A stretch of 64,000 bases of DNA from a bacterium (GTDB lineage: Bacteria; Patescibacteriota; Patescibacteriia; 2-12-FULL-60-25): NCBI GenBank assembly GCA_021796435.1, contig JAJYXM010000016.1:310625-374624 (forward strand), in the 5' to 3' direction. The notes below the pieces were generated by a model that was not told the DNA's origin, did not search any database, and saw nothing but the letters and a program-made list of their open reading frames with translations. Both the position numbers and the translations under genes were made by a program. Below are positions 36,151 to 59,061 of this stretch, piece by piece; position 1 is the stretch's first letter; every line of letters begins with the position of its first letter.

Positions 36151-36186
36151 AAAACAAAAAACCCGGTCCGCCGGGTTTTTTGTTTG
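36151..36186 (+). terminator. Bidirectional rho-independent terminator after yqeY
   Basis: aaaaaa-cccgg-tccg-ccggg-tttttt. Confidence 0.8.
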
Positions 36187-36336: not shown

Positions 36337-38214
36337 ATGCAAAAAAATAGAGCGTTCCTCTTTTCATTTTTGAAAACTGCCACCGGACGGGTGCTGTTTT
36401 TCGCCCTCATAAGCGCCGTGGTCGTGACTCTCTTGCCGGTAGAAATCAGGGCACAGACTGACGTCGGGGTCAATAACGTCCAGCAGGTAGCGAATACGGC
36501 CGGCTTGGCTGGAGGGTCGGATTTGATAACCATCATCGGGAGGATAATCAACATCTTCTTAGGCTTCTTAGGGTTGGTGTTCTTGGTGTTGATGCTTTAC
36601 GCCGGATTCACCTGGATGACCGCGGCGGGTGATGCGGATAAGATCAAGAAAGCGCAGGGGACCATCCGTAATGCGATCATCGGTCTGGTCATCATAGCTT
36701 CGGCTTGGGCGATAACATCGTTCATCCTCGGCATTTTCGCAGGACAGGGTTTGGGCGGCATCGGTGGTGGAGGACCTAGCGGGCCGTTGGCGCCATTCTC
36801 TTCAGCGCCAGGTTCGGCTTGCTTGGGCAAGGGGATAATCGAGACGCATCTGCCGGACAGGAACTCTACCGGTATACCGAGGAATTCGCCGATTATCATA
36901 ACGTTCAAGGAGCCGATGAAGCCTGACACGATAATGAAGGGGTGGACGGATGCCACGAGCAATACCCAGATGGAATGGCCCTTGGAGGATAAGAACGTGC
37001 TCATCTATCGGACGGTGCAGGGTCAGGATGCGGCCATGGGATCGGACCAGATAAAGGTCAGATATACCAAGGATCTGAAGACGTTCGTCTTCAAACCGGC
37101 TGATTATTTGGGGAGCCCGACCGAGAAGATCGGCTATACCGTAGTTTTAAAAGGAAGCAAGAACGGTATCCTGAAGGCAGACGGTTCTCCTGCTCTGACT
37201 TGTTCACCGAACAATGAATATTCCTGGCAATTCGAGGTGTCGACAGTGCTTGATCTCACTCCGCCTTATGTGACTGCGGTCATCCCGCCGGCTGAAGGAC
37301 TATACGCGAGGAATATCATAGTGATGTTGAATTTCAATAAAGCCATGGATCCGACCGCGTCACAGGGTACGACGGCTGACGGTTTCCAGAATATCGAGAT
37401 TTTGGCTACGCCTAACGGGCAGACTGTAGGCATCCCGGTAACCGGAGAATTCAAGATCGTCAACCAGTACAGGACAGTCGAATTCGTGAGCGACGCGAAG
37501 TGCGGAACGAATTCATGCGGACGCGACGTCTATTGTTTGCCGGGCAATGCACAGATCCAAGTCAACGCCAAAGCTGGGACGTTGGATGGTCCAGGGCCGC
37601 AAGCCGTATTCACGACCAATGGTTATGACGGCTTGGTAAGCGTCGTCGGGAATTCTTTGGATGGCGACCACAACGACAAGGCGGAAGGTCCGCCGGGAGA
37701 TAATTATCAGTGGTCTTTCGGAACCTCGAATGACATCAAGCTATCACCGCCGGTGATCGTCAGCACGACGCCTGATTCAGACCCGAATACCGGTAAGAAT
37801 TCCAACGTATCATTGGACATGCCGATAACGGCGCTTTTCGATTCTTTCCTTCAGGCATCTACATTGAATTCGGATAACGTATACGTGGATGCCCATGGGA
37901 CTACCGAGCAACCGGATACTTTCTGGTGGACCGTCGGCATGAAGCTGGTCAAGAACGACGGGTCGGACATCGATACTACGACCGTACCGCCGGAAAAGCC
38001 GGAAGTCAGCGCGCTGACCATAGATCATCGGCCGTTCCAGCCGTCAGGAGTATTCCCGAACCTGAATTATTATGATCCATACATCACTTCCGGGGTGCAG
38101 GACGCTTATCAGAACTGTTTCGTACCGGCACGAAAATGCGGTGCAGGGAGCGGCGCCAATTGTTGCAAATTCCAACCCAACTCTGAAGTGTGCAAGAAAA
38201 TATTAAATCCATGA
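36337..38214 (+). CDS. Surface protein with signal peptide + TrbC/VirB2-pilin-like double-TM N-module, Gly linker and Ig-like domains
   Basis: The N-terminal 140 aa are about 55% identical to the N-terminus of the next gene. Hydrophobic helices IINIFLGFLGLVFLVLMLYAGFTWMTAAGD and NAIIGLVIIASAWAIT. TGA overlaps the ATG of the next gene (ATGA). Confidence 0.7.
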   Translation: MQKNRAFLFSFLKTATGRVLFFALISAVVVTLLPVEIRAQTDVGVNNVQQVANTAGLAGGSDLITIIGRIINIFLGFLGLVFLVLMLYAGFTWMTAAGDADKIKKAQGTIRNAIIGLVIIASAWAITSFILGIFAGQGLGGIGGGGPSGPLAPFSSAPGSACLGKGIIETHLPDRNSTGIPRNSPIIITFKEPMKPDTIMKGWTDATSNTQMEWPLEDKNVLIYRTVQGQDAAMGSDQIKVRYTKDLKTFVFKPADYLGSPTEKIGYTVVLKGSKNGILKADGSPALTCSPNNEYSWQFEVSTVLDLTPPYVTAVIPPAEGLYARNIIVMLNFNKAMDPTASQGTTADGFQNIEILATPNGQTVGIPVTGEFKIVNQYRTVEFVSDAKCGTNSCGRDVYCLPGNAQIQVNAKAGTLDGPGPQAVFTTNGYDGLVSVVGNSLDGDHNDKAEGPPGDNYQWSFGTSNDIKLSPPVIVSTTPDSDPNTGKNSNVSLDMPITALFDSFLQASTLNSDNVYVDAHGTTEQPDTFWWTVGMKLVKNDGSDIDTTTVPPEKPEVSALTIDHRPFQPSGVFPNLNYYDPYITSGVQDAYQNCFVPARKCGAGSGANCCKFQPNSEVCKKILNP

Positions 38215-41200
38215 AGGTACGTAACATTTTCGCCATAGCGTCTATCGGACTCGGCCTGGCGGCGGGTACGATGTTTCTGTCGGCCCACGCCGTACGAGCA
38301 CAGGTCGATACGGGGTTGCAGCAGGTGGGGCAGACGGTGAAGCTTTCAGGGACTGACCCGCGCACTATAGCCGCGAACATCATCAATATCGCGTTGGGCT
38401 TGGTGGGTATCGTGCTCGTCGGTCTGATACTTTACGGTGGCTTCCTGTACATGACGTCGGCCGGTGACAGCGCCAAAGTGGATAAAGCCAGGAAAGTCAT
38501 CACCAACGCCATAATCGGTCTGGTCATAGTGTTGTCGGCTTGGGCCATCACCAGATACGTAATAGATAAGTTGTTGCAGGCGACGCAGGAAGGCGGAGGC
38601 GTCGGTGGAGGTGCTAGCTCTGGTTATGTCGGAGGGTTCGGCAGCGGAACGGGCGGCAGCAGCTTCAGGATAGTCTCGATCACTCCGCAAGGCAGCCAGC
38701 CTGGGAAGCCAAGGAATACCGTAGTCAAGATCCTTTTGACCAAGGCCGTGGATGAAGCGACAGCTTCTGCCGTTACCGTGGTCAAAGATGGCGGTACGAC
38801 CGTCGGAGGCACTATTGCGGTTCAAGGGACGCTTGTGACGTTTACGCCGGTACAAGCCTGTCCTTCGCCGAACGAAACACGTAAATGTTTCGACGCCGAT
38901 TCGGCCTTTACGATTAAAGTCGGGACAAGCCTGAAATCAGCTCAAGGACAGCCGATCGCTTGCGGCGGTTTTGCACCAGCATGCGAAGCGCATTTCACTA
39001 CAGGCAATCTGGTCGACGTTTCGGGCCCGAACGTGTCTTTGACCTTCCCGACGGACGGCATGTCGATCCAGCAGAATTATTATTCGGATGTCTTGGCTCA
39101 TGCGACAGACGATAGCGGCGTCGCAATCGTGCAATTTTTGGATGGCGCCGATGAGATCGGCAGCGACGGACCGAGTTCGGCGGATACGCCACTAAGTTTC
39201 GATGCCAAGATTTTTTGGGATACGGCTGGAGCTGCTTTAGGCGTGCATACCTTGACCGCAAAGGCGTTGGATTTGGATACGAACACGACGCAAAGCCAGA
39301 GCGTTTCGGTCGTCGTACGCCCGGAACATTGTTTCAACGGTAAACAGGATCAGGATGAGACTGGCATAGACTGTGGTGGTGATCCGAACAGCACGGATTT
39401 CTGTGGCGTATGCAGCGGTGGTTCGTGTACCAGTAATAGCCAATGTTCTTCGGGTTTTTGCCAAGGCGGGGTGTGTATCGAGAAGCCTGTGATCAAGTCA
39501 GTTTCTCCGTTGAACGGCAAGCCGGGTACTTTCGTCTCCATCGCGGGTACTAATTTCGGAACTAATCCGGGTACGGTCGTTTTCTTAGGTGACCCGAACA
39601 ATCCAGCCGACGATAAAATCGCAGTCGCGCCACAAGCCTGTGTCAATGCAGGAAGCCAAACATGGAGCAATACGCAGGCGATAGTTTCTTTGCCGGACGG
39701 TGCAGCTTCAGGGCCGATAGAAATCAAGAATGCTTCCAGCTCGTTGACCGACAGGACGGATCAAGATCCTGGGCCGGCAGTCGCAGATTTCGTCGTGGAT
39801 AATACGGAACATCCTGGGCTTTGTGCTTTGGATCCAGCGTCCGATAGCGTTGGCAAAAACGTGAAAGCTATAGGACAGGGTTTTGGAAATTCGCAGGGCA
39901 AGGTCATATTCGGTTCCCTGGACCAGCAACTGGCGGGATCACCGTGGTCTGACGCTAACGTCACATTCAAGGTTCCGGTCGTCAACAACGGGCCGTATCA
40001 GGTCTGGGTCCAGACAGGCGCAGGCACAAGTAATCCGGCACAGTTCGTGGTGACGGAAAAGAGCCTCGAAGCGGCTCCTGAATTGGATAGCCTCGATCCG
40101 ACGCAAGGCCCATTGCAGCAATATGTGACGCTGTATGGCAGGAATTTCGGATATAACGTAGGAACGGTGATTTTTTCCGCACAGGATGGTACCGAGGCGA
40201 TCGGTGACACGAGTTTTCCGGCTGCTTGCAGCGCAGGTTTCTGGTTGGATGACACGATCGTAGTCAAAGTCCCTTCGGTCTTCAAGAACGGTCAGGGATT
40301 GATCGACGGCACCTATCAGGTCAGGGTAAAACGTTCCGATAATAAGGAATCGGCCTCGTTGCCTTTCAATGTCAATAAATCCTTACCTCTCAAGCCAGGT
40401 ATCTGTGCCATCAGTCCCGCAGTCGGACCCGTGGGAACGGACGTGAAGATCTACGGTGAACGTTTCGGCTTCGACAAACCGTTGGTGTCTTTCAGCACGA
40501 GCAAGCAGGCTTTGGTGCAATCCAATACGAACCAGGAGGTGCAGACTTCGGTCCCGAATAATTCGATCACCGGTCCGGTGACGGTCACGAGCAATGCCGT
40601 CATCTCTAATGGTTTCAATTTCCAGGTCAGGAATTGCAATGAAGCCCCTGAAATCTGCGGACCGGTCGATAAGTTCCAATGTTGCCAGACTGGGGAGTGT
40701 CGACCAGCGGGACAGTCTTGCGCCGTTGCACCGACCGAATCCGAATATGCCTGGCAACTTTCCACAGGACTGATTCCGTTGGCGCCATACGTCATCGAAG
40801 AATGCCGTCCGGACATCACTCCAGCGCCGACTCCTTCACCATCTCCATGGAGTGGTAGAGCTGGTGGGGACCAGGCGCCGACCGATGCGGCGATAACGAT
40901 GCGTTTTTCGCAGCAGCTCGAAATGAGCACGGTCACCAAACAAGCTTTCCATATATACGCCTGCAAAGGCGCCTCGGCCGATCCTTGCGATACGAAGGAA
41001 GCAATCCAGGATTTCACCATGCACTTGACCCACGAGAACAATCAGCAGGATTTGGTGACGTTGAATCCGAGCGCGAAGTTCGCGACCAATACCACATATC
41101 TGGTGACCATCTCGACAGACATAAAGGGCGCAGGCGAGACAGGGGCCAACATGATCGAGAACAAGGCCTGCGGCAAAGGCCAGAACAATGAGACTTATGG

Positions 41201-44200
41201 CTATTGTTTCAGGTTCAAGACGCGTGCTTCGGAAGAGCCGTCACAAGTCGGTTCGGTCGGCGTCGTTCCATCCAGCTATACCTTCAAGGAGACCGGAGTC
41301 TACATCGGCTACGAAGCCGTACCGACGGATGCACAAGATAAATGCATCGTCCTGGATTGCCAGCAGTTCAACTGGAATTGGCATGCCGGAGATACGCGCG
41401 GGTCGATCACCAACATGACCGGCGGACAATTCAATTACGGCCTGTGCAACCAGCAAGGGACGGGAAATTTCGAGACGGGTAACGTACCGGTGGACATACT
41501 TTCCGATCTGGCCGGCACCAGCCTCACGGGACAAGGCGAGATGTTCGTGAATTTCGTGCCGCCCCGCGTCGAGGAATATGCGCCGAAGTGCGACGAGGCG
41601 TGCAGCAATGCTTTGATCTGGGCCAGGTTCTCGGCCAAGCTCGATGCAGCTTCGGCCTTGACCCCGAACAACATCAAATTGCAGAAGTGTTATAACGAAA
41701 ATTGTTTCGAATCGGAATTGGGCCAGCCTATCGCCATCACGATGAACCTTAAGGACGATACGACGATCGAGATTTCGCATGCACCACTCGAAGCCGGAGG
41801 ATTCTATCGTCTTTTCCTGCGTGGCGGACCTAACGCCATAAATCCTGCCACACTGGAGAATAACGGAATCCAGGGCCTGAACGGCGTGCCGATGACGGGA
41901 ACCAACCATCCGGAAGGGTTTTTCTGGAAATTCCGTGTGTTGCAAGGGACCGCAGCTTTCTGCAAGGCGGAACGCGTAGACCTCAAACCTTTGGAGAAAT
42001 ACGAGACGAACGTCGATGCACGTCAGCTTTTCGAGGCGACGCCGTATAGCCCGCCGGATAAGTGCAGCTCTGATGGCCAGCAGTTGGTGAACCAGGGGGA
42101 TACACAATGGGCATCAGGCGATATCACGGTCGCGGATTTCTACAGACAGGCACAGTCTCTAATCAAGTCCGATAAGACGAAGCTGCCTGCAGGCTGTTCG
42201 TCAAAATGCTTAGCCATGGGAGCTGGCGGGTTGTTCGGCAAGGTCGCGATGTGCGGTAACGGCATCATAGAGACGACTGACGCGAATTATTGCGTAGGTG
42301 GAAAGACTCCCCGAGGTAGCGCATGTAAGCTCATGCCGGCTGGCGCGAAAGCAGGCGAGGAATGTGAGCCGACGATAGACGGTTTGGATAAGTGCGATGT
42401 CGCTACATGCTTGTTCCGTTCCGTGGCAGCTGTCAATCAGGGAGGCACTTGTGGTGACGGTACGGTGCAGGCCGCCGCTGGTGAAGCGTGTGATTACGGC
42501 CCGACATGCGTAGGCGGCAGTACAGCGACCAGCTCTACGCCTGTGCCTGAATATGCTTCATGTCCGGATGCGACGACCAAACAAGCTTGTGAAAACGCCG
42601 GAGGAGTATGCGCGATGCATGATTACCGCGGATGCTCGGCGAATTGTCGGCATACCGGAGCCAAGTCGGGCAAGACGACTTGCGGTAACGGAGATTTCCA
42701 CGGCGACGGAAAAGATTGCGATGACGGCAACGTGGCTAACGGCGATGGATGCAGTTCGGATTGTCTACACGAGCCGTCACAGCCATCTACCGTTTTAGCG
42801 GCGGTGTGCGGTAACGGTATTTTGGAAAAAGGCGAGACATGCGAAGCCACTATGGTGAACGGGAGCCCGGTTTTCGCTCCGGGATGCGACAGCAGTTCGT
42901 GTCTGCATACAGGTACCTTATCCTGCATGCCGGGTCAGAACCTCAGTTGCTGCGGTAATGCGGTGCTTGATCCAGGAGAGGACTGCGACGACGGCAACAC
43001 CGCCTCAAAAGACGGATGCAGCTCGAGTTGTCTGTTGGAAGGTTCATCAGCCTATTATTCCGCCGTACCTTCCGGTATCGCGCCGAGTTTCTGCGGCAAC
43101 GGTTATCTGGAGAAGGGCGAACAGTGCGAGGTGGGCGCTTCATCCGACAGTATCGCTAAATTGGTTTACGCAGGCCTGCCGAAGGACGCTGCCTTGGCAT
43201 GGTCGCCGGTCTTGAACAAGAGTTTCGCTAACATCCAAAGCGGCATCGACCCCATACAGTTGGCCAAAATAATCGGCGAAAAAGAACCCGATCCAGCGAC
43301 CGGAAGATCATCTTCCGAATTGAGCGCGGTGATGCTGGAACAGACGGGTAAAGCGACGTATGGCCTGCAGTGCGGCTATAACGACGAAGCGAATTGCACT
43401 CCGGATGACCTGTCTAACCCGCGCGGTCTGGATGATTTCGGTTGCTGCCGACTGCGTCCGATCGTGGCCAAGGCTTATCCGCCACCGCCGCCATTCGAGG
43501 CTTGCCGTAATGTCCAGATCCAGATCGAATTCAATCAGGCGATGGATACGGTATCGGTGACCAATAATTTCGAGATTTCTGAAGGTCCTGATGCAGCGAA
43601 CAAATGTCCGGACGGTACGCAGGAAGTCGTGTTGAACACTGATAATCAGCCGGGTTTCTGGAATTTCCTGAAACGCATTTGGCGCTCGATCGTCGCTTGG
43701 ATCTTTAAGCAGCCCGCCATAGCCGAGAAGTGGTGCGTAGGCAAAGTCACGGGACAACTCACCGCAGCCGATCAGCAATCGCAGGCGACTAAATTCATCT
43801 ACACTTTGGATCATGCCCTGGATGCCGGAAAGCTTTATCGTATCAGGTTGAAAGGCGACGATGATCTGACCGACAACGCTGACAAGAACGCACGGCATGG
43901 CATCAAGACGGCGGCTGGCGTGGTGCATGATGGCGACATCACATGGAACTTCAAGACGGGCAACCAAATCTGCGCCTTGAACACCGTCACGATATACGAT
44001 GTGACGCAGGATCCGCCGGACGAGAAGCATCCTTTCCTATACGTGAACAAAGGCAACAAGTCTGAAGAGAGGCATTTCGAGGCAGAGGCGCAATCACTGC
44101 AGAACGGCACGGCGATACCGCTTTCGACGACAGCTGAATACCAGTGGGATTGGCACGTCTGGACGACGAGCGATCCGGATTTGGTTAATTATAGCCCGAA

Positions 44201-47200
44201 TTATCCGATCCAACCGCCGACCTACAAAGGACATTTCGTTTCGGTGGTCGAGGGTAGCGCGCAAAAGAACGGGCACGCGATACTGACGGCCGGCATCAAA
44301 GTCGTCCACGACGAAGTTAACGTCCCGTCATCCACGGGTTCGGTAATACAAGGCGTGGCACATGTCGCGGTCTTGGCTTGCGAGAACCCATGGCCATCGC
44401 TGCAGACTTCTCCGTTCAGCGACACCAAGACTTGGTTGAACGACCGTTGGGCCGATCTGCCTGATTCAAGGCCTAACATCTTCATCGGCAACGATCCGTA
44501 TATCGGCAAACCGGTCTTCTACAATTTCTCCACCATGTATTGTCGCGATGCGGGCGTGGAGCATGACCAGACCGACGATCTGCCGGAACTCGTGATAAAC
44601 CAGGTGCCGCGAACCGCAGTGGACAAAGCAAACGGCATCTTGCGTCAATACCTTTTGACCTTCAAGGACGATGCCTTGAAGAAGGATGGTATCGGTATCC
44701 GTGTCGCCGAGAATCCGCAGCATCTGTCGGCTTTGGAGTGGTACTACTCGAAGGGCTTCGCAGGCAAACCGAAAGTGCTTAGCGTAGACGGATATCCGGC
44801 GGTCCAAGACGGCAATACGTTATATGTCGATGCCGCCAACCAACCCGAAACGAACGAATCGATATATTCGAACATCTATGTCTTCTCCTTGAATCCGGAT
44901 GCTCAGCAGGTGACGCAGGACATATTCAAACAGCTGGTCCAATATCTGGCTTTCAACGTCAACATCGTCGGTCAGAGCAATACCTGCCATATAGCAACGG
45001 GCGCGAACCAATACACGAATACCGACATCTACACCGACAGTCAGGGAGTACCGAAACGCTGCACCGCAGATTGGGAGTGTGCACCTTTGGATTCCTCGAG
45101 CAATCTGTTCTGCGATTCCAATAAGGCCAAGATGGCACGTGACACGCAGCGCATGGCTGATTTCCAGGCCATCAACAAACGGTTGCTGGAGACGCGAGAT
45201 GCGCAGGGCAGATATCTGCAGCTCCAGACCGGAACGTACCTTAAAGGATTGACGACCTCATTGTGGCCGTCATGGACGGATGAATTCGGGAAGGCCTTGG
45301 GCACCATGCCGGTTGATCCGATCGATAGGTTCTTGACTTGTGGAGAGTGCACTGACGGGAGTGTGTGCCAGACGGATAAGGACTGCGGGGAAAACGGCAA
45401 GTGCATGGGTAAACGTTTCGAGAACGGCGAATGGGTGGACGCACCGGATCTGGATCCGCAGACCTGTTGGAACTCTAAAGCGTTCACCTATACCTGTCCG
45501 GCTTATAAGACCGGCAATCCGTTCTCGGTCTCGCGTCTGTACCAGTACCGCTCCTTGGCCGGAGGCACACAGTATGAATTGGCTTCGGAGTTCGAAGTCC
45601 AACCAATGACATTGAACCAGAAAGACTGGTGGTACCCGGCATTGCCGAGCACCATGTACCAGTGCGTGAATCCAGGAGCGGTCGGCAGATATTGCAATGA
45701 CGGCAACGGCAATCCATCAGATGCCCTATGCCGTATATGCGCGAATCCAGCCAGCTGCAAACAGTGCAAGACGAGCGGTGCGGATTGCACGACTAACGCG
45801 GCAGTCTGTGCTGCGCCGGATACGTGCGTGGATGTAGCTTCGATCCCCGCGTCCTGTCGGCCTTTCGGGGGTACGTTCAAATATGCCGGAGTCTGCACCA
45901 ATCAAGCTTATGCCGAGAACGGGACTTGCGGAGACAAGGTCCTCAACAATAACGAACTATGTGAATTAGGCGACACAAAGTCCGAAACCTGTACCGTGAA
46001 CGGTAAGCCGGGACATCGCCAGCTGGCATGTAATGCGTGCACCAAGTTCGATGTGGATCCGCAGAGACCGCAGTGCGTGGAGGATTCGGTTTGTGGCAAT
46101 GGCCGTATAGATAAGGTTTGCGCCGGAAGTACGGTTTCGTGTTTAAGTAATGCTGACTGTACGGGAGGCGTGCTCTGCATCAATAATGAAGCATGCGATG
46201 ATGGGGTGGATAACGGTAAATACGGTCATTGCAACGCGACGTGTCAGGGCTATGCGGGGTTCTGTGGAGATGGTCAGCTTTCGCCAGGTGAAGTCTGTGA
46301 TAAGGGTGTGAACAATGGCCAGTGGAGCAACGCTTATAATGCAGCTACCTGTGCGACGAACTGCAAAGGCGTGGGTCCGTATTGCGGCGATGAGGAGATC
46401 AACGGCTCGGAAGAGTGTGACGGCGGTGCCCAGACGACGCAGGCTGCTTTCTGCATAAACGCCAACCCACCGACGCTTTGTGATACGAATGCCGATTGCC
46501 CGCAAGGTAAATTATGCGCGGGTAAAGCGGTCGCTCGTCTAGACGCAAAATCTTCCCGGACGTTAGCGTTCGTCCGTGGGAAGTTGGGTGAGGCTTGGTT
46601 GAATTATGTGTTGGTACCGGCGGTCCAGGCTGCACCTCCGCCACCCCAGCAACAGAATAGTTCCAACATAAATTCGGTCGTCTACACTAAGTTAAATATC
46701 TGGACCACTAACACCATCAAACCCGGTAAACTCAGCGGCGGGTTGCAGTTCATTCCTGCTATCCCTGGCGGTGGAGGCGGAGGACAACAGACGACGCAAT
46801 ATGTCGATGTCAACGGCAATAAGATAAACGTCACAGCGTTCAATTCATGCGAGGGTGTGTATGTCGTGGATTCAAACGGAATCAAGCGCGAGACGCAGCA
46901 CGTGAGGAACTGCAATGCTCCTGGCGCCACCAACTCCTGTAAGTGGAGCGACTGGACCGGTTGTGTCCCGGTCGGCATCTGTGGCGACGGCATCAAGGAC
47001 CTTAACGAAGCTTGCGATAATGGAGCAAATAACGGCGATACAAAAGCGTGCACCTCGCAGTGCAAGGTCAATACTTGCGGCGACGGTCTGTTGAATGTCG
47101 GGGTAGAGGAATGCGATTCAGGTGCGCAGAACGGCCAAGTGACCTGTAACGCCGACTATGATTCGTCCTGCCTATCGTGCAGCAATCTGTGCAAGTTCAT

Positions 47201-48839
47201 GGCTTCGGCTGGAGGATATTGCGGCGACGGGGTAAAGAACGGTCCGGAACAATGCGACGGCACTCAAGGCCTGACTGTAGGGAATTCTCCGGTGACATGT
47301 TCGATGTTGGGCTATGATTACGGAGTGAACGCGAACAATAATGCGACTTGTGCTTCGGATTGCAATTACGGCGGTTGCAAGCGTTGTTCGGACGAGCCAG
47401 GCGACGGAGTGATAGAGGGAAGGGTGTATGATGCGGTTTTCCAGCAGGTCGTCCCGAACGCACGTGTCAGCCTGATGTATAAAGGTGCGAAAGTGGAAGA
47501 GGCTTTCACGGATCAGGACGGCAAATATAAATTCGTCGACCTAAATAAAAATTCCGCCTGTACGAGCTACAGAATCGTCATCGACATGTATCAGGATAAC
47601 GTATGTACAGGCCAAGACCATGCTGGTTTCAATTGCTTCAGCGTCGGTGTCAGTCCATGGGTCTATCCGTATGCTCTGGATGAAGGGGCGAATGGAGGAT
47701 ATTTCTCTTTCACCACAGACCTTTTCAGCTTCAGTACCTATAAGAGCGTGTTGAACGGTGAAGATTTCGACTCGGTGCCTCATATCGACATATTCCCGCG
47801 TCCTGAAAGAGGCCGTGCATATATGGCTATGACATGGAAGCCGACCGGAGGGACCATAGGTTACAAGGCTCATACGATATTGCCTGATGTAAGCGCCTAT
47901 AAGGTCGTAGATTTTGATGGCGGAGATACGACCATGTCGTGCGATTACGCTACGCGTCCGACTGCCGACGGAAAGGCTTGTGCACGAGATATAAACTGGC
48001 GTGCCTGGGGCTCGTGGCAGATCGATACCTTGCCATATACCCGAATGATATGTCTAAGGCGTGTAGGTGAATTGACTTCTGGATGGTCGAGCTCGGCTTC
48101 GAACGGCTGTCCATTCGAAGGCGTGACGAGCTGTCTGCAGAGGGCGGGTAAGACACTCAGCAGCTGCGGGTGTACTGTCGATGCAGATGGCAAGAAAGTG
48201 ACGTGCACAAGCACAAACTCGGCCTGTTTGGCCTGTGGGGCTGACGTGAGCCATTCGTGCAATAAGGATGCCCACTTCGCTGACTGTGCTAACCCTGTGA
48301 CATATGGACCGATCACCGTTTTGACTAACTATACTGCCCTGATGAACCAGAGCGAGGACATCAAGTTCTACTTCAGCGCCGGTCCGGGCGATGCGGCATC
48401 GTTCAAATCAGCGATGTCGAATACCTCAAAGGGCTATAAGGCTTATACGGCCATAACTGATTTGTCTGGCGCATCGGAGCTGCAAGTGATCGAAAAGCCA
48501 TCAGATTCGGGTTGGTTCTGGGAAATCGCTCACTTACAGCCGAAGCAACAAAAGGTCGTCAAGATAGATAAATTAGCCGGTAGCGACAATGACATGGCTA
48601 CGACAATGCAGAATACTCCGACGTCCAATAAACCGAGTTATCTTGATGGTTGGGGAGCTTGGTCGCTGTTCTTCCAAGCCGGTGGGAAAAATTATTGCGT
48701 AAGCACGACCGATAACACGAAACTTCATCCGACCATCGGCCCATGCTATTGGGATACTCCTAAACAGATTTGTGCACAGACGGCGGGCTATCACTGTGCA
48801 GACGTGGATCCCACGACTTATTACAAATATAACTGGTGA
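38211..48839 (+). CDS. Giant (about 3,542 aa) cell-surface protein: pilin-like N-module, Ig-like domains, IPT/TIG domains, about 25 cysteine-rich CGDG/CGNG...CDDGN repeats, carboxypeptidase-regulatory-like domain, Cys/Trp-rich C-terminal domain
   Basis: Single uninterrupted ORF. IPT/TIG signatures (PVIKSVSPLNGKPGTFVSIAGTNFG; PELDSLDPTQGPLQQYVTLYGRNFG; PGICAISPAVGPVGTDVKIYGERFG). Repeats such as CGNGILEKGETCE, CDDGNVANGDGCSSDC and CGDGLLNVGVEECDSG, like the Myxococcus cysteine-rich repeat. CarbopepD-reg-like GRVYDAVFQQVVPNARVSL...TDQDGKYKF. Confidence 0.8.
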   Translation: MKVRNIFAIASIGLGLAAGTMFLSAHAVRAQVDTGLQQVGQTVKLSGTDPRTIAANIINIALGLVGIVLVGLILYGGFLYMTSAGDSAKVDKARKVITNAIIGLVIVLSAWAITRYVIDKLLQATQEGGGVGGGASSGYVGGFGSGTGGSSFRIVSITPQGSQPGKPRNTVVKILLTKAVDEATASAVTVVKDGGTTVGGTIAVQGTLVTFTPVQACPSPNETRKCFDADSAFTIKVGTSLKSAQGQPIACGGFAPACEAHFTTGNLVDVSGPNVSLTFPTDGMSIQQNYYSDVLAHATDDSGVAIVQFLDGADEIGSDGPSSADTPLSFDAKIFWDTAGAALGVHTLTAKALDLDTNTTQSQSVSVVVRPEHCFNGKQDQDETGIDCGGDPNSTDFCGVCSGGSCTSNSQCSSGFCQGGVCIEKPVIKSVSPLNGKPGTFVSIAGTNFGTNPGTVVFLGDPNNPADDKIAVAPQACVNAGSQTWSNTQAIVSLPDGAASGPIEIKNASSSLTDRTDQDPGPAVADFVVDNTEHPGLCALDPASDSVGKNVKAIGQGFGNSQGKVIFGSLDQQLAGSPWSDANVTFKVPVVNNGPYQVWVQTGAGTSNPAQFVVTEKSLEAAPELDSLDPTQGPLQQYVTLYGRNFGYNVGTVIFSAQDGTEAIGDTSFPAACSAGFWLDDTIVVKVPSVFKNGQGLIDGTYQVRVKRSDNKESASLPFNVNKSLPLKPGICAISPAVGPVGTDVKIYGERFGFDKPLVSFSTSKQALVQSNTNQEVQTSVPNNSITGPVTVTSNAVISNGFNFQVRNCNEAPEICGPVDKFQCCQTGECRPAGQSCAVAPTESEYAWQLSTGLIPLAPYVIEECRPDITPAPTPSPSPWSGRAGGDQAPTDAAITMRFSQQLEMSTVTKQAFHIYACKGASADPCDTKEAIQDFTMHLTHENNQQDLVTLNPSAKFATNTTYLVTISTDIKGAGETGANMIENKACGKGQNNETYGYCFRFKTRASEEPSQVGSVGVVPSSYTFKETGVYIGYEAVPTDAQDKCIVLDCQQFNWNWHAGDTRGSITNMTGGQFNYGLCNQQGTGNFETGNVPVDILSDLAGTSLTGQGEMFVNFVPPRVEEYAPKCDEACSNALIWARFSAKLDAASALTPNNIKLQKCYNENCFESELGQPIAITMNLKDDTTIEISHAPLEAGGFYRLFLRGGPNAINPATLENNGIQGLNGVPMTGTNHPEGFFWKFRVLQGTAAFCKAERVDLKPLEKYETNVDARQLFEATPYSPPDKCSSDGQQLVNQGDTQWASGDITVADFYRQAQSLIKSDKTKLPAGCSSKCLAMGAGGLFGKVAMCGNGIIETTDANYCVGGKTPRGSACKLMPAGAKAGEECEPTIDGLDKCDVATCLFRSVAAVNQGGTCGDGTVQAAAGEACDYGPTCVGGSTATSSTPVPEYASCPDATTKQACENAGGVCAMHDYRGCSANCRHTGAKSGKTTCGNGDFHGDGKDCDDGNVANGDGCSSDCLHEPSQPSTVLAAVCGNGILEKGETCEATMVNGSPVFAPGCDSSSCLHTGTLSCMPGQNLSCCGNAVLDPGEDCDDGNTASKDGCSSSCLLEGSSAYYSAVPSGIAPSFCGNGYLEKGEQCEVGASSDSIAKLVYAGLPKDAALAWSPVLNKSFANIQSGIDPIQLAKIIGEKEPDPATGRSSSELSAVMLEQTGKATYGLQCGYNDEANCTPDDLSNPRGLDDFGCCRLRPIVAKAYPPPPPFEACRNVQIQIEFNQAMDTVSVTNNFEISEGPDAANKCPDGTQEVVLNTDNQPGFWNFLKRIWRSIVAWIFKQPAIAEKWCVGKVTGQLTAADQQSQATKFIYTLDHALDAGKLYRIRLKGDDDLTDNADKNARHGIKTAAGVVHDGDITWNFKTGNQICALNTVTIYDVTQDPPDEKHPFLYVNKGNKSEERHFEAEAQSLQNGTAIPLSTTAEYQWDWHVWTTSDPDLVNYSPNYPIQPPTYKGHFVSVVEGSAQKNGHAILTAGIKVVHDEVNVPSSTGSVIQGVAHVAVLACENPWPSLQTSPFSDTKTWLNDRWADLPDSRPNIFIGNDPYIGKPVFYNFSTMYCRDAGVEHDQTDDLPELVINQVPRTAVDKANGILRQYLLTFKDDALKKDGIGIRVAENPQHLSALEWYYSKGFAGKPKVLSVDGYPAVQDGNTLYVDAANQPETNESIYSNIYVFSLNPDAQQVTQDIFKQLVQYLAFNVNIVGQSNTCHIATGANQYTNTDIYTDSQGVPKRCTADWECAPLDSSSNLFCDSNKAKMARDTQRMADFQAINKRLLETRDAQGRYLQLQTGTYLKGLTTSLWPSWTDEFGKALGTMPVDPIDRFLTCGECTDGSVCQTDKDCGENGKCMGKRFENGEWVDAPDLDPQTCWNSKAFTYTCPAYKTGNPFSVSRLYQYRSLAGGTQYELASEFEVQPMTLNQKDWWYPALPSTMYQCVNPGAVGRYCNDGNGNPSDALCRICANPASCKQCKTSGADCTTNAAVCAAPDTCVDVASIPASCRPFGGTFKYAGVCTNQAYAENGTCGDKVLNNNELCELGDTKSETCTVNGKPGHRQLACNACTKFDVDPQRPQCVEDSVCGNGRIDKVCAGSTVSCLSNADCTGGVLCINNEACDDGVDNGKYGHCNATCQGYAGFCGDGQLSPGEVCDKGVNNGQWSNAYNAATCATNCKGVGPYCGDEEINGSEECDGGAQTTQAAFCINANPPTLCDTNADCPQGKLCAGKAVARLDAKSSRTLAFVRGKLGEAWLNYVLVPAVQAAPPPPQQQNSSNINSVVYTKLNIWTTNTIKPGKLSGGLQFIPAIPGGGGGGQQTTQYVDVNGNKINVTAFNSCEGVYVVDSNGIKRETQHVRNCNAPGATNSCKWSDWTGCVPVGICGDGIKDLNEACDNGANNGDTKACTSQCKVNTCGDGLLNVGVEECDSGAQNGQVTCNADYDSSCLSCSNLCKFMASAGGYCGDGVKNGPEQCDGTQGLTVGNSPVTCSMLGYDYGVNANNNATCASDCNYGGCKRCSDEPGDGVIEGRVYDAVFQQVVPNARVSLMYKGAKVEEAFTDQDGKYKFVDLNKNSACTSYRIVIDMYQDNVCTGQDHAGFNCFSVGVSPWVYPYALDEGANGGYFSFTTDLFSFSTYKSVLNGEDFDSVPHIDIFPRPERGRAYMAMTWKPTGGTIGYKAHTILPDVSAYKVVDFDGGDTTMSCDYATRPTADGKACARDINWRAWGSWQIDTLPYTRMICLRRVGELTSGWSSSASNGCPFEGVTSCLQRAGKTLSSCGCTVDADGKKVTCTSTNSACLACGADVSHSCNKDAHFADCANPVTYGPITVLTNYTALMNQSEDIKFYFSAGPGDAASFKSAMSNTSKGYKAYTAITDLSGASELQVIEKPSDSGWFWEIAHLQPKQQKVVKIDKLAGSDNDMATTMQNTPTSNKPSYLDGWGAWSLFFQAGGKNYCVSTTDNTKLHPTIGPCYWDTPKQICAQTAGYHCADVDPTTYYKYNW

Positions 48840-49141
48840 TTATGGAGAAGAAAGCGCTGATATTCTATGTCGCGGTGACTTTGGTCGGTTTGGGGATCAT
48901 GGCTGGTTTGGTGCTGTACTTGAGGAGCCGTAATGCACCTAACGTAATACCGGTAGCAATACAAAGCACGACATCGACTGCGGCAGTACAAAATCTTACA
49001 GGCAATCAGACCAACTCAAAAGTGAGATATGCAGTGCCGTTGGATAAAATCCCTAAGGCTGAATCATACAAACCAGGGGACCCCATAAACGAACAATTAC
49101 CCACACTAACAATTTCGCCAGACGGTCAATTAGATCAATAA
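48836..49141 (+). CDS. Small single-TM membrane protein
   Basis: GTG/ATG start overlapping the giant gene stop; TM FYVAVTLVGLGIMAGLVLYL. Confidence 0.4.
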   Translation: MIMEKKALIFYVAVTLVGLGIMAGLVLYLRSRNAPNVIPVAIQSTTSTAAVQNLTGNQTNSKVRYAVPLDKIPKAESYKPGDPINEQLPTLTISPDGQLDQ

Positions 49142-49146
49142 TCACT

Positions 49147-50205
49147 ATGTTCGACAACGTACCCCCGAATCTGCCGGTAGAACCGGCCAATCAGACGCCG
49201 CCACCTCCGCCACCTACGCCCTCCGGCAATCAACCGAAACCGATCGTCGTCGGGCAACCCAAGAAAGAACCCGAGGATATCTTTTCGGACATCAATGTGG
49301 GCGGTGACGACATACAGACCGCACCATCTAGTCAGGATATCTACAGCGCACCGAAGAAGTCGGCTTTGCCTTTGGCCGCCGTGATAGTCGTTGCGATTAT
49401 CGTGTTAGGGGGAATAGCTTTTGCAGTATGGTATTTCCTGTTGCGGCAGGAGAGCGTCCCGGCTCCTGCCTCGAATACGACGCAGACTACACAGCCTGCG
49501 CCTGTCCAGCAGCAGCCGGAGATCGTCGAACAGCCTCCTGTGACGGCGAATGAGGTGACGACCGTGCCCCCGGCAGGTACGAATATCCCCTTGCCGGAAC
49601 AGACGGAGCAACCTACGACCACCGAAAACATGCCCGCCGAAGCGTCGACGGAACCGGCTGTGCCACCTCCGCCAGCAGCGGTGATTACGGAAGGTGTAGA
49701 TTCCGATAGCGATGGGCTGACTGATGTGGAGGAGGCGTTACTCGGGACAAACCCACAACTTGCCGATACTGATGGTGACGGATACAGCGACGGCAGCGAA
49801 GTGATGAACCTATACAGCCCTTTGGCGGCGAACCAGCCTTTATCCGCAGACCCAAGCTTCAGTCCAGCGACTTGGGAAGCGAAGTCGCCGCTTAACAGCT
49901 ATACTTGGACGTTTTTGCGGCCTAAGGCATGGCTCCTTAACGGAGAGTCGGTGATGCAAGCTGTACTTTCGACCGATACGTCTGCACGATTCGTCTTCAG
50001 CCTAGCTACGAAAGCGGATATCCCGCCTGGCGCCACTTTCAAGACGAAATCCGGTTTGGATGCCGTAAGGACAGAAGATCGTCTGACCACGTATGTCTAT
50101 TCGGGTGACGCCGTCATAGCTGTGACCTATGATCCGAATGGAGCGGCGACTTATGAGTATAGAACGTTATACGACGAACTGGTGAACTCGCTGCATCTGC
50201 AATGA
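49147..50205 (+). CDS. Membrane-anchored surface protein with Pro-rich linker, TSP3/dockerin-like Ca-binding motif and a C-terminal domain shared with the next gene
   Basis: TM LPLAAVIVVAIIVLGGIAFAVWYFLL; DSDSDGLTDVEEALLGTNPQLADTDGDGYSDGSEV; C-terminus ...YEYRTLYDELVNSLHLQ. Confidence 0.5.
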   Translation: MFDNVPPNLPVEPANQTPPPPPPTPSGNQPKPIVVGQPKKEPEDIFSDINVGGDDIQTAPSSQDIYSAPKKSALPLAAVIVVAIIVLGGIAFAVWYFLLRQESVPAPASNTTQTTQPAPVQQQPEIVEQPPVTANEVTTVPPAGTNIPLPEQTEQPTTTENMPAEASTEPAVPPPPAAVITEGVDSDSDGLTDVEEALLGTNPQLADTDGDGYSDGSEVMNLYSPLAANQPLSADPSFSPATWEAKSPLNSYTWTFLRPKAWLLNGESVMQAVLSTDTSARFVFSLATKADIPPGATFKTKSGLDAVRTEDRLTTYVYSGDAVIAVTYDPNGAATYEYRTLYDELVNSLHLQ

Positions 50206-50290
50206 GTGCCTAGGTGAGACCGATCGGAGCACGGACGTATATAGAAAAAATTAGTGCGGCAAGGTAAAATCATGATGACCACATCCTTTT

Positions 50291-51646
50291 ATGCCTGAAG
50301 AACAGATGAAACAAAACACGGCTGCAGCTGCAGAACCGGAAATAGTAGTCATACCGGAGAAGTACTACGGTGCTGCTTTGCGAGCTAAGGCTCCTGAGAT
50401 GGCGCCTATGCCTCAGCAGACATTGGAGAAACCCAAGAAGAGCCATGTTTTGCCTATCGTGATCGTTGTCGTCGTCCTGTTGATAGGTGCCGCCGCCGCT
50501 TTCGTCTATCTCAATCAGGAGTTGTTTTTCCCCAAGCCAGCGCCTACGCCGCAACCCGTCGTCGAGACGCCGGTCGAACCGACACCTGTGCCGCCTCCCG
50601 CCGCTCCGCTCAACCTAGCGGCTACATCGACTAATCCGCAGAGCGTCGCGATATCCTGGACCGATAATTCGGATAACGAATCAGGTTTCCGTCTGGAGCG
50701 TGCTGAAGGCACTGGCCCATTCTTCGCTTTGACCAATCTTCCGCCGAACAGCAGTTCTTTCCTGGATGTTTCGGTCAAAGCAGACACGACATATCGTTAT
50801 CGTGTATTCGCCTCTAACCAGTCTGGAGATTCCGCTCCATCAAACGAGTCCACGGCGCAAGTCCCACCATTACCGCCGGCGCCACCTGAACAGCAGAAGC
50901 TGCCACCGGCAGGTCTGGACAGCGACTCTGATGGTCTGACTGATCTGGAGGAGGACCTATTCAAGACGAACAAGAACAATCCAGACACCGACGGAGACGG
51001 ATTCTTGGACGGCAATGAGGTATTCCATCTGTACAACCCGAATGGTCAGGCGCCAGCCCGTCTGATTGACGCCGGTCTGGTCAAGGAGGTCAAGGGAAGC
51101 GTGGGTTGGACGATGCAGATACCGAGCGTCTGGAACATGAGGTTAGATAAGACTGACGGCACTGCTGCCACGATCGATAGCGGGCATGGCGAGACCTTCA
51201 TCCTCACCATACAGGATAATCCGAACAGGTTACCGATAATCGATTGGTATCTCGAGAAGAATCCTGATGTGCAACGCAGCGAAATATTGGTCTACAGGTC
51301 CAAGCAGGGTTATGACGGAATCATCGGTAAAGACCTATTGACTACGTACATACCCTGGGAAGATAAAGTCTTCGTATTCAAGTACGATATCGACGGCCAG
51401 CAGTACATAAACTATCGGACGACATATTCGATGATGTTGAATTCCCTCATCCTGCAGGGTATGCCGCAGGTTTCTCCGCCGGTAGCAGGGACACCGTTGC
51501 CTTTCGAACCAGCCGCTACGACCACAGGGGTCGTAAACCAGCCACAAGCCGTCGATGTATTCCCTTCGCCCGGAGAACAGACGCCCCTTGAGGGAACAGA
51601 GGGTCTGACGGCTACCACTACAGAGACGGTAAATCCAGCGCCATGA
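50291..51646 (+). CDS. Membrane-anchored surface protein, paralog of 49147-50205, with fibronectin type III domain
   Basis: TM VLPIVIVVVVLLIGAAAAFVYL; FN3-like PLNLAATSTNPQSVAISWTDNS...TTYRYRVFASN; DSDSDGLTDLEEDLFKTNKNNPDTDGDGFLDGNEV; C-terminus ...YINYRTTYSMMLNSLILQ. Confidence 0.55.
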   Translation: MPEEQMKQNTAAAAEPEIVVIPEKYYGAALRAKAPEMAPMPQQTLEKPKKSHVLPIVIVVVVLLIGAAAAFVYLNQELFFPKPAPTPQPVVETPVEPTPVPPPAAPLNLAATSTNPQSVAISWTDNSDNESGFRLERAEGTGPFFALTNLPPNSSSFLDVSVKADTTYRYRVFASNQSGDSAPSNESTAQVPPLPPAPPEQQKLPPAGLDSDSDGLTDLEEDLFKTNKNNPDTDGDGFLDGNEVFHLYNPNGQAPARLIDAGLVKEVKGSVGWTMQIPSVWNMRLDKTDGTAATIDSGHGETFILTIQDNPNRLPIIDWYLEKNPDVQRSEILVYRSKQGYDGIIGKDLLTTYIPWEDKVFVFKYDIDGQQYINYRTTYSMMLNSLILQGMPQVSPPVAGTPLPFEPAATTTGVVNQPQAVDVFPSPGEQTPLEGTEGLTATTTETVNPAP

Positions 51647-57609: not shown

Positions 57610-59061
57610 ATGGCAAAGCAAACCAAGCGTACAAAGATCGTCTGCACGATAGGTCCGGCGACGGCGAGTAAGGAGAAGATCAAAGAGTTGATAAGTTCCG
57701 GGATGAACATGGCGCGATTGAATTTTTCGCACGGTTCGTACGCCGATCACACGAAGCTCATCAAAGCCATCCGCGCTGCGTCAGCTGAACTGGGTGAGAC
57801 GGTCGCTATCCTGCAGGATCTGCAGGGTCCGAAGATCCGTGTCGGAGAACTGCCGGCCAAGGGTGTCGAGTTGAAGGCCGGAAGTACGGTCGTGTTGACG
57901 ACAAGCAACAAGCCGGGGAAAGGCAAGCTGCCTGTGACATATGCGGATCTGCATAAAGACGTCGAACCGGGGCAGAAATTGTTGCTGGACGACGGCTTGA
58001 TGGACATGAAGGTGGTCAAAGTAGTGGGCCGCGACATCACGTGTCTCGTCGGGACCGGCGGACTCCTGACGTCGCATAAGGGCATAAACTTGCCGGAGAC
58101 CAAGGTCAGTGCCTCGGCTTTGTCGGATAAAGATAAACAGGATGCGGAATTCGGTGTGAAGATGGATGTGGACTGGATCGCGTTGTCTTTCGTGCGCACG
58201 GCCAAGGAGATCCTTGATCTGAAATACCTCATAAAGAAATTCGAGAAACAGCAGAAAAAGAAAGTCACGGCGCCTATCCGCATCATCGCCAAGATCGAGA
58301 AACGTGAGGCGGTGGATAATATCCAGAGCATCCTGGAGGTCGTCGACGGCATCATGGTGGCGCGCGGCGATTTGGGCATAGAGATCCCGGCGGAGGATGT
58401 ACCGTTGGTGCAGAAACATCTCGTGGATGCGGCGCGCGAAGCGTCCAAGCCAGTCATAGTAGCGACGCAGATGTTGGATTCCATGATCCGCAATCCACGT
58501 CCGACGAGGGCAGAAGTCTCGGATGTAGCGAATGCGGTGATCGATCATACGGACGCGGTCATGCTGTCGGGCGAGACGGCTGCGGGAAAATATCCGATCG
58601 AGACGGTAGAGACCATGGCGCGTATCGTCCGCCGTACGGAACAATCGCACTATGACGACGTGGCAGCGCCGAAAATCCGCAAGTTCCTGACGGAGGAAGA
58701 GGCCGTGTCCAATGTCGCCGCCATACTGGCGAAGAGCACTGACGCCGCAGCCATCCTGGTAGCGTCACTCTCCGGCTCGGCCGGCAGGATAGTCAGCCGC
58801 TATCGACCTGAATTGCCGATCCTCGTCTCGACGAACGACCCGCGGGTGTGCAGGCAGCTTTCGGTCTCGTGGGGTGTGGTTCCCTTCGTCTTGCCGACTT
58901 GCCGCAGCATCGAAGAGCTTATAGATCGTTCGATGATCTATCTATTGGAGGCGCGTCAGGTCAAGAAAGGCGACGACGTGATAGTCATCGCTGGAGAGCC
59001 GGTCGGAGTCTCCGGACACATCAACTTCGTCGAAATCCGTAGAGTCGGACTAGAGAAATGA
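57610..59061 (+). CDS. pyk: Pyruvate kinase
   Basis: KIVCTIGPAT...MARLNFSHG...MVARGDLGIEIP motifs. Confidence 0.9.
   Translation: MAKQTKRTKIVCTIGPATASKEKIKELISSGMNMARLNFSHGSYADHTKLIKAIRAASAELGETVAILQDLQGPKIRVGELPAKGVELKAGSTVVLTTSNKPGKGKLPVTYADLHKDVEPGQKLLLDDGLMDMKVVKVVGRDITCLVGTGGLLTSHKGINLPETKVSASALSDKDKQDAEFGVKMDVDWIALSFVRTAKEILDLKYLIKKFEKQQKKKVTAPIRIIAKIEKREAVDNIQSILEVVDGIMVARGDLGIEIPAEDVPLVQKHLVDAAREASKPVIVATQMLDSMIRNPRPTRAEVSDVANAVIDHTDAVMLSGETAAGKYPIETVETMARIVRRTEQSHYDDVAAPKIRKFLTEEEAVSNVAAILAKSTDAAAILVASLSGSAGRIVSRYRPELPILVSTNDPRVCRQLSVSWGVVPFVLPTCRSIEELIDRSMIYLLEARQVKKGDDVIVIAGEPVGVSGHINFVEIRRVGLEK

Follow-up and report, generated by a model that had tools for sequence, protein, structure and literature searches.

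A giant cysteine-rich protein with a VirB2-like pilin domain, predicted to form a membrane-anchored surface fibre in a Patescibacteria bacterium

A 64,000-nucleotide stretch of contig JAJYXM010000016.1 (assembly GCA_021796435.1, positions 310,625 to 374,624 of the forward strand; hereafter the window, numbered from its first letter) carries a giant gene at positions 38211–48839 on the plus strand, with 3,542 codons plus a stop. We propose that its product is a giant, membrane-anchored cell-surface fibre of an ultrasmall Patescibacteria (candidate phyla radiation, CPR) bacterium, which probably serves contact with a partner cell and has a fast-evolving distal end. We give this reading a probability of roughly 55%. 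That the protein is a membrane-anchored, extracytoplasmic giant surface protein is predicted with good confidence; that its function is cell-cell or host contact is, from the sequence features described below, close to an even call. Patescibacteria constitute a large share of bacterial diversity and live mostly attached to other cells, and we know of few contact molecules in these bacteria outside a few Saccharibacteria.

The giant open reading frame (ORF) represents a genuine gene under strong conservation. It has two possible starts, a GTG at 38190 and an ATG at 38211, and from either it runs open up to the stop at 48839, with no internal stop codon among the 3,542 codons counted from the ATG; an earlier note on this DNA, made from the letters alone, had described it correctly as uninterrupted. 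The ATG and the TGA that ends the upstream gene coincide in the sequence ATGA (a 4-nt start/stop overlap), and the gene 3' of the giant begins with a GTG that overlaps the giant's stop or with an ATG three bases beyond it. An identical 3,542-residue product is encoded on four separately recorded public contigs of different assembly sources, among them a 35-kb contig that Logan assembled from run SRR13201255, as well as NCBI/ENA contigs of 0.2–1.5 Mb. The protein is already deposited, unnamed, in public databases.

A scan for orthologs, with one genome per species, provided two full-length comparators with intact frames. The nearest genome (L001), a metagenome-assembled genome (MAG) labelled 'Patescibacteria group bacterium', encodes a 3,577-residue ortholog on a 1.24-Mb contig, and a more distant one (L002) encodes 3,594 residues. 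The three giants are collinear end to end, with 78% identity and 41 gap columns between the window and L001, and 53% identity between the window and L002. Synonymous sites are saturated between the window and L001 (dS at least 1.8), while the nonsynonymous rate dN is 0.08–0.22 in every region, giving an overall dN/dS of about 0.05. The protein contains 164 cysteines, none of them in the first 160 residues, and these are conserved to 99% in L001 and 98% in L002; for comparison, serine is conserved to 39% and lysine to 19% in L002. Strong purifying selection acts along the whole protein, and its architecture and neighbourhood are kept across deeply diverged relatives.

At the DNA level, direct repeats inside the gene reach no more than 45 nt (76% identity), and Tandem Repeats Finder detects no tandem repeats in it. 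The repeats of the protein are old and diverged, and the gene is not assembly-fragile because DNA-level repeats are absent. Apart from the general risk that attends repeat-bearing giant genes in metagenome assemblies, nothing speaks for an assembly chimera or for a chance or decayed ORF. This reading is effectively refuted by the four identical contigs, the intact full-length orthologs in two other genomes together with dozens of giants in the databases, the low dN/dS and the lack of long DNA repeats. The warning in the earlier note that the repeat content makes the gene assembly-sensitive is contradicted by the same repeat analysis, the four contigs and the collinear, nearly gap-free orthologs. 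Its broader description of a giant cysteine-repeat surface protein from a reduced-genome symbiont was essentially right, given the ortholog in a Patescibacteria MAG, the signal peptide and the conservation of the cysteines.

The N-terminus carries the proposed anchor. Hydropathy identifies only three hydrophobic segments in the entire protein, at aa 5–25, 51–85 and 95–119. The first belongs to a signal peptide (aa 1–30, 38211–38300, plus strand), with a predicted cleavage after AVRA, ahead of the conserved motif QVDTGL; both the A-x-A/Q context and the motif that follows are kept in the N-termini of the family. In VirB2, too, the signal peptide is cleaved ahead of a conserved glutamine. The other two segments form the helices of a VirB2/TrbC-like T4SS_pilin domain (aa 51–117, 38361–38561, plus strand), which scores 46.5 bits against PF18895 (cut-off 26.6). 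With the gathering score exceeded, a signal peptide and two hydrophobic helices, the protein belongs to PF18895, and we propose the two-helix domain as its membrane anchor. The NCBIfam equivalog NF045849 (Mbov_0395 family pilin-like conjugal transfer protein) reaches 33.6 bits, below its cut-off of 40. A glycine-rich linker, read from the sequence, follows the second helix (aa 126–151, 38586–38663, plus strand) and occurs in relatives as well. Neither the signal peptide nor the pilin domain was in the earlier domain list, and it is the anchor that most constrains how the protein could work.

The roughly 3,400 residues after the hairpin contain at least eight immunoglobulin (Ig)-like/TIG domains, three cysteine clusters, a central module, a transthyretin-like sandwich and a C-terminal region, all encoded on the plus strand. 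Pfam gathering scores were 20.9 for IPT/TIG (PF01833), 23.6 for Big_5 (PF13205), 24.1 for Big_7 (PF17957) and 32.3 for CarboxypepD_reg (PF13620). The predicted stalk begins with a Big_5 domain (aa 152–264, 38664–39002, 27.5 bits) and a Big_7 domain (aa 273–350, 39027–39260, 32.5 bits). Three IPT/TIG domains follow (aa 426–509, 541–613 and 623–719; 39486–40367) with 35.0, 23.2 and 25.6 bits, in agreement with the earlier count of at least three. A fourth TIG-like unit (aa 730–808, 40398–40634) is recognised by motif only, ISPAVGPVGTDVKIYGERFG, with the regular-expression match ISPAVGPVGTDVKIYGERF; it has no Pfam match at E<=0.1. Another Big_5 domain lies at aa 886–976 (40866–41138, 36.9 bits) and a further Big_5/Big_7-type Ig-like domain at about aa 1765; Big_5 occurs at least three times in total. 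The Big_5 and Big_7 domains, like the central module described below, had been missed by the earlier note.

The conserved cysteines include those of the acidic repeats that form three clusters. Cluster 1 (aa 1347–1656, 42249–43178) contains about six repeats, three of them canonical, and is recognised by TIGR02232, DUF4215 and a hidden Markov model (HMM) trained iteratively on the giant itself. The curated models place the protein in both families: TIGR02232 (myxo_disulf_rpt, cut-off 20.8 bits) scores 82.1 bits over three stretches within aa 1480–1660, and DUF4215 (cut-off 27 bits) scores 41.6 bits. Outside aa 1480–1660, TIGR02232 reaches only 13–14 bits. Cluster 2 (aa 2572–2752, 45924–46466) contains about four degenerate repeats, found with the self-trained HMM and scoring 13.7 bits with TIGR02232, and cluster 3 (aa 2923–3056, 46977–47378) contains about three, found with the self-trained HMM. 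This model gave 14 significant matches, two of which are fragments, or about 13 repeats in total; the CG[DN]G motif occurs ten times. The Myxococcus-type repeat proposed earlier is present, but the proposed copy number of more than 20 is too high. A comparison of repeat number among strains had been suggested as a check, and among the relatives the number looks fixed rather than variable. An adhesin that uses variable repeats as a contingency device was considered and rejected.

Towards the distal end lies a transthyretin-like or carboxypeptidase-regulatory-like β-sandwich (aa 3068–3127, 47412–47591). The CarboxypepD_reg match was part of the original description; it reaches 25.4 bits (E 1.8e-5, profile positions 2–47 of 82) and falls below the gathering score, while the fold, a seven-stranded transthyretin-like β-sandwich, supports the assignment. 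The last 408 residues (aa 3135–3542, 47613–48836) form the Cys/Trp-rich terminal region noted before, with about 19 cysteines and about 12 tryptophans and a conserved end, ...KYNW. This is the fastest-evolving part of the giant, with the highest dN between the window and L001, and only 9 of 153 relatives have a recognisable counterpart of the last ~400 residues. In all relatives with the same type of C-terminus, the final residues (48822–48836 in the window) follow the pattern ...(Y/F)xKYNW-COOH, with the variants HKYNW, DKYNW, HAFNW, HLYNW, NQYNW, EKYNW and QKLNW; this conservation of the extreme C-terminus suggests a functional terminal motif. Other family members carry Laminin_G_3 (concanavalin-like lectin) modules in their distal regions (P0044, P0065 and P0055) or have no known domain there.

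A variable C-terminus is also what would be expected of a secreted or contact-dependent polymorphic toxin or lytic effector with an exchangeable warhead, and cysteine-rich DUF4215/TIGR02232 repeats do occur in secreted proteins of predatory myxobacteria. We consider this very improbable. Pfam and NCBIfam scans of all segments contain no toxin, peptidase, nuclease, glycosidase or Rhs/YD family, and the predicted model of the C-terminal region matches β-sandwich folds only (TerD-like and transthyretin-like). No small immunity-like gene with a matching pattern was found, and the invariant residues of the central module carry no catalytic signature. The toxin reading was rejected on these grounds.

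The surface-fibre reading also draws on a family of proteins with the same layout, which is defined by the central module (aa 1900–2520, 43908–45770). The module is the best-conserved part of the giant in the comparison with L001 (81–90% identity) and has no Pfam or NCBIfam match and no sequence match in the PDB. An exhaustive HMMER search with it against 1.84 billion representatives of 50%-identity clusters retrieved 1,346 clusters at E<=0.001, 513 of them at E<=1e-30. The best 150 clusters have a median length of about 3,000 residues, and 84 of them reach at least 2,800. The clusters retrieved are mostly giants of 3,000–4,600 residues with the N-terminus of the window's protein; among the best 150, most of the giants have the module at about residue 1,800–2,500. 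We examined 86 giants, the 84 just mentioned plus the two locus orthologs: the N-terminal pilin-like domain is common to 83, the TIG region and the region of aa 830–1340 to 79–81, and the cysteine clusters are also present in most. The domain combination, which had been called uncommon, is by these matches lineage-typical and common in metagenomes, and the giant is no isolated case but one member of a large uncharacterised family. Word-indexed protein searches with the central region, the C-terminus and a profile gave one or two matches each and no taxonomic picture; it was the exhaustive search that brought the family to light. Public names of relatives include 'Ig-like domain-containing protein', 'IPT/TIG domain-containing protein [Patescibacteria group bacterium]' and, at JGI, 'cysteine-rich repeat protein'; members that carry source names are from Patescibacteria and are generically annotated. 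The full-text literature that we searched on giant, cysteine-rich or pilin-fusion proteins of Patescibacteria/Parcubacteria does not describe the family, which is not to say that it is absent from the literature.

An AlphaFold2 (AF2) model of the central module, built from 25 sequences (pLDDT 78.9, pTM 0.80), predicts an Ig-like sandwich (about aa 1925–2054), an α/β domain (about aa 2106–2244) and a small cysteine knot. At about aa 2304–2460 the model has a 24-residue helix, followed by a short helix and a four-stranded β-sheet. Fold matches of the model are limited to generic Ig-like and PsbP/LpqN-like structures. The invariant residues are mostly Cys, Trp, Gly, Pro and Asp/Asn, which suggests a role in structure or binding rather than catalysis. 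Part of the module appears separately in nature: short proteins of 300–1,300 residues consist of a signal peptide followed directly by a sub-module that matches aa 2155–2400 of the giant, and because they carry it alone the sub-module can be regarded as an autonomous, mobile domain. Such stand-alone proteins, which would be secreted or anchored, are P0128, P0120, P0146, P0100, P0107 and P0001 (323–1,266 aa), some of which continue with PKD/He_PIG domains.

The way in which the proposed fibre would be built and used can be outlined. The protein would be exported by the Sec pathway and its signal peptide cleaved after AVRA. The two-helix hairpin would remain embedded in the cytoplasmic membrane and leave the C-terminus on the outside, the topology of VirB2. 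The Ig/TIG domains and disulfide-locked repeats would form a long stalk that carries the central module past the wall, together with the variable distal region. This region would touch a partner cell, a host cell or the glycans on the surface of either, lectin modules being located at that place in some relatives. In Patescibacteria that parasitise methanogens, genes for proteins with a T4SS-pilin domain belong to those that are highly expressed and putatively related to adhesion (PMC10936435), and surface adhesins are essential in Saccharibacteria (PMC11665869).

Several points weigh against a role in contact. Pfam and NCBIfam scans and the C-terminal model reveal no recognised adhesive or lectin domain in the giant's own distal region. 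The giant is a conserved, syntenic and apparently single-copy core gene next to ftsA/ftsZ, and its repeat number is fixed; an adhesin that sets the host range would usually look different, since such adhesins tend to vary in copy or repeat number. The expression, surface exposure and binding of the protein are predictions, and the episymbiotic lifestyle of the organism is assumed from its phylum.

The giant is embedded in a conserved gene cluster. Immediately upstream lies a gene for a 625-residue pilin-fusion protein (36337–38214, plus strand) with a VirB2-like domain (PF18895, 37.6 bits) and Big_5. Over 107 residues this protein shares 49% identity with the giant, and its gene is kept upstream of the giants in L001, L002 and two further loci, L004 and L005. 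Downstream, three membrane proteins of 101, 352 and 451 residues are encoded at 48836–51646 on the plus strand, a set that is also conserved downstream in L004 and L005. The first has one transmembrane (TM) helix, the second TSP3 repeats and the third fn3 plus TSP3. The latter two (49147–50205 and 50291–51646, plus strand) are paralogs with 32% identity over 188 residues (E 5e-25). Both are bitopic, with a cytoplasmic N-terminus, one TM segment, a Pro/Thr-rich linker, calcium-binding TSP3 repeats and a shared C-terminal domain. Together with the second pilin-fusion protein, which would be co-transcribed with the giant, they probably act as its partners where the fibre is rooted. A strong GC-rich hairpin with a 15-pair stem between runs of A and T, AAACAAAAAACCCGG...CCGGGTTTTTTGTTT, lies between yqeY and the pilin-fusion gene (36152–36185, no strand assigned). 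It resembles a bidirectional intrinsic terminator and is likely the upstream boundary of the transcription unit. A scan for promoters and terminators gave counts below the shuffled expectation, with this hairpin alone standing out.

The tandem PF18895 genes constitute what looks like a 'VirB2 array' away from any genes of a type IV secretion system (T4SS). In L004, an additional 129-residue pilin-only gene (7607–7996) between the two fusion genes gives three PF18895 genes in a row. Such arrays have been described for Patescibacteria and are essential in Southlakia, and in Saccharibacteria pilin arrays have been shown to belong to an essential T4SS (PMC12102498; PMC10633639). The giant could accordingly be read as a modular T4SS pilin, with its N-terminal domain assembled into a pilus together with the 625-residue paralog, and the small pilin-only protein where a relative has one, and with the passenger decorating or capping the pilus. 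The PF18895 match above cut-off, the position within an array of two to three pilin-domain genes and a predicted cleavage ahead of a conserved glutamine like that of VirB2 favour this reading, which we nonetheless consider unlikely. T4SS genes such as VirB4, VirB6 and VirB3/PrgI are absent from the 20 window neighbours scanned and from the called genes of L003–L005; the scanned ORFs of the 64-kb window, and those flanking the giants of L004 and L005, encode housekeeping and division functions. The NF045849 score, as given above, stays below its cut-off. A 370-kDa passenger on every pilin subunit is also sterically implausible, and because of this packing problem the giant could be a pilin only as a minor or tip subunit.

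One feature of the central module may bear on this question. The segment at about aa 2304–2460 contains the motifs RD..R..D, YP, WPSW and DP.N, within the pattern K.K..RD..R..D...I...L..Y....G.YP.L..G...WPSW...LP.DP.N, followed further on by Y.YR...G..YEL. By eye, this region is reminiscent of the soluble pilin head found in type IV pilins and pseudopilins (GspG-like), and we treat this as a lead. An hhalign comparison with an approximate PulG sequence aligned the helix and YP at only 21.7% probability over 29 columns, a search of the PDB gave no sequence match to this segment even at E<=10, and the window and the compared loci contain no prepilin-motif genes. A bolder proposal can be built on these elements: the giants of this family would be 'modular VirB2 pilins' that serve a large branch of the Patescibacteria as a conserved contact organelle, with the N-terminal domain plugged into or onto the tip of the essential, relaxase-less T4SS, a pilin-head-like domain in the central module and a fast-evolving C-terminus that engages the host. 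We regard this as quite doubtful. If true, a VirB2-pilin organelle would connect the T4SS physically with host recognition, and the giant would be the first candidate for what the 'pilus' of this system carries.

The wider neighbourhood raises a different alternative to the surface fibre. The window encodes thyX, gyrB, ftsW, murA, hisS, a lepB-type signal peptidase, ftsA, ftsZ, htrA and ppdK, and L004 and L005 repeat the order S21-YqeY-[pilin+Big_5]-giant-small protein-TSP3/fn3 proteins-YbeY-DagK-FtsA-FtsZ, with giants that are only about 35–40% identical to that of the window in the central module. Conservation of the position next to ybeY-dagK-ftsA-ftsZ over such divergence, together with the fixed architecture and the strong purifying selection along the whole length, could indicate a core envelope scaffold, S-layer-like or wall-spanning and perhaps coordinated with division, rather than a device for host contact. 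Small CPR genomes, however, often keep their synteny, and such conservation is not in itself a sign of function. The Pfam and NCBIfam scans gave no domain for S-layer homology, wall binding or self-assembly, and the fast-diverging C-terminus and the lectin modules found there in relatives fit outward recognition better. We judge the scaffold rather improbable, and retain the anchored contact fibre as the preferred reading.

Some further observations concern the compared genomes and the window at large. The L002 contig (CAYWEE010000008.1) is labelled 'uncultured Gammaproteobacteria bacterium', yet it has a Patescibacteria-type gene order (signal peptidase, HisRS, pilin+Big_5, giant, TSP3/fn3 proteins, FtsA, FtsZ) and the full-length ortholog with 53% identity; it is probably a mis-binned or mislabelled MAG. 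The ThyX homolog of the window (2609–4171, minus strand) has 519 residues and two Thy1 stretches, and is apparently a duplicated, double-domain flavin-dependent thymidylate synthase. Two proteins that use phosphoenolpyruvate (PEP) are encoded at 15572–17113 and 59058–61469, both on the plus strand; one of the pair is a full pyruvate phosphate dikinase of 803 residues, and in the other, of 513 residues, only the mobile domain of PEP-utilizers is recognised. GC skew is positive in every 2-kb bin of positions 1–64000, and since the cumulative skew also rises monotonically the whole window can be placed on one replichore arm. The G+C content of the window is about 54% and the longest contig with the giant gene is 1.52 Mb, both on the high side for Patescibacteria.

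The giant gene occupies about 0.7% of a genome of about 1.5 Mb, is strongly constrained throughout its 10.6 kb and has a family that comprises more than 1,300 sequence clusters. A giant as such will not surprise specialists in CPR genomes; what is described here is a well-defined, widespread and uncharacterised core component with an anchor that hints at a link to the T4SS. With its VirB2-like anchor, its conserved five-gene cluster and a central module without a solved or curated relative, it offers a defined target for proteomics, cryo-electron tomography and structural work. Should the anchor truly engage a T4SS, the protein would have a bearing on what that essential system does in Patescibacteria.

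In its general design the protein is close to the fibrillar giant adhesins of the invasin/intimin, SiiE, Bap and Ebh types, with which it shares its very large size, an Ig-like stalk (Big_5, Big_7 and TIG), an extracytoplasmic location and a distal region that evolves fastest. One of the marks of a fibrillar adhesin, a tandem Ig-like stalk with a surface anchor, is present: at least three Big_5 domains, Big_7, three to four TIG domains and the central Ig-like domain, behind an N-terminal anchor. Nevertheless, it is distinct from the characterised giant fibrillar proteins in five ways. The anchor is an N-terminal VirB2-like hairpin rather than an LPXTG/sortase signal, a β-barrel or the retention module of a type I secretion system; the repeats are ancient and diverged, leaving the DNA non-repetitive; their number is fixed between relatives; the disulfide content is heavy, with 164 conserved cysteines; and the 620-residue central module lacks a curated or solved relative. 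The giant is, moreover, a syntenic core gene.

The N-terminal 120 residues and the tandem PF18895 gene correspond to the VirB2/TrbC-type pilins and the 'VirB2 arrays' of Patescibacteria (PF18895; PMC12102498). The pilins described are small, whereas the giant carries a passenger of about 3,400 residues, and in the DNA scanned neither virB4 nor another T4SS gene adjoins its array; a search of PMC12102498 gave no mention of such fusions. With the Myxococcus-type TIGR02232/DUF4215 proteins the giant shares three canonical repeats and about ten degenerate copies with a CG[DN]G...E.C[DE].G core. Unlike in those proteins, the repeats account for about 15% of the sequence and are interspersed with unrelated modules, and the organism is a Patescibacterium rather than a myxobacterium.

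Modular type IV pilins of Gram-positive bacteria consist of a pilin module onto which a functional domain is grafted, and the giant is similar in that a pilin-type module carries a large extracellular module. The differences are that its pilin module is VirB2-like and of the T4SS type, that no prepilin motif occurs in the window and that the passenger is larger by one to two orders of magnitude. Giant genes for very large predicted surface proteins have reportedly also been found in ultrasmall or predatory lineages, the Omnitrophota and Vampirococcus/Absconditabacteria, which are reduced-genome, host-dependent bacteria. The likeness to these giants is one of description only, while the central module of the present family finds mainly proteins with a PF18895 N-terminus, those that carry names being from Patescibacteria.

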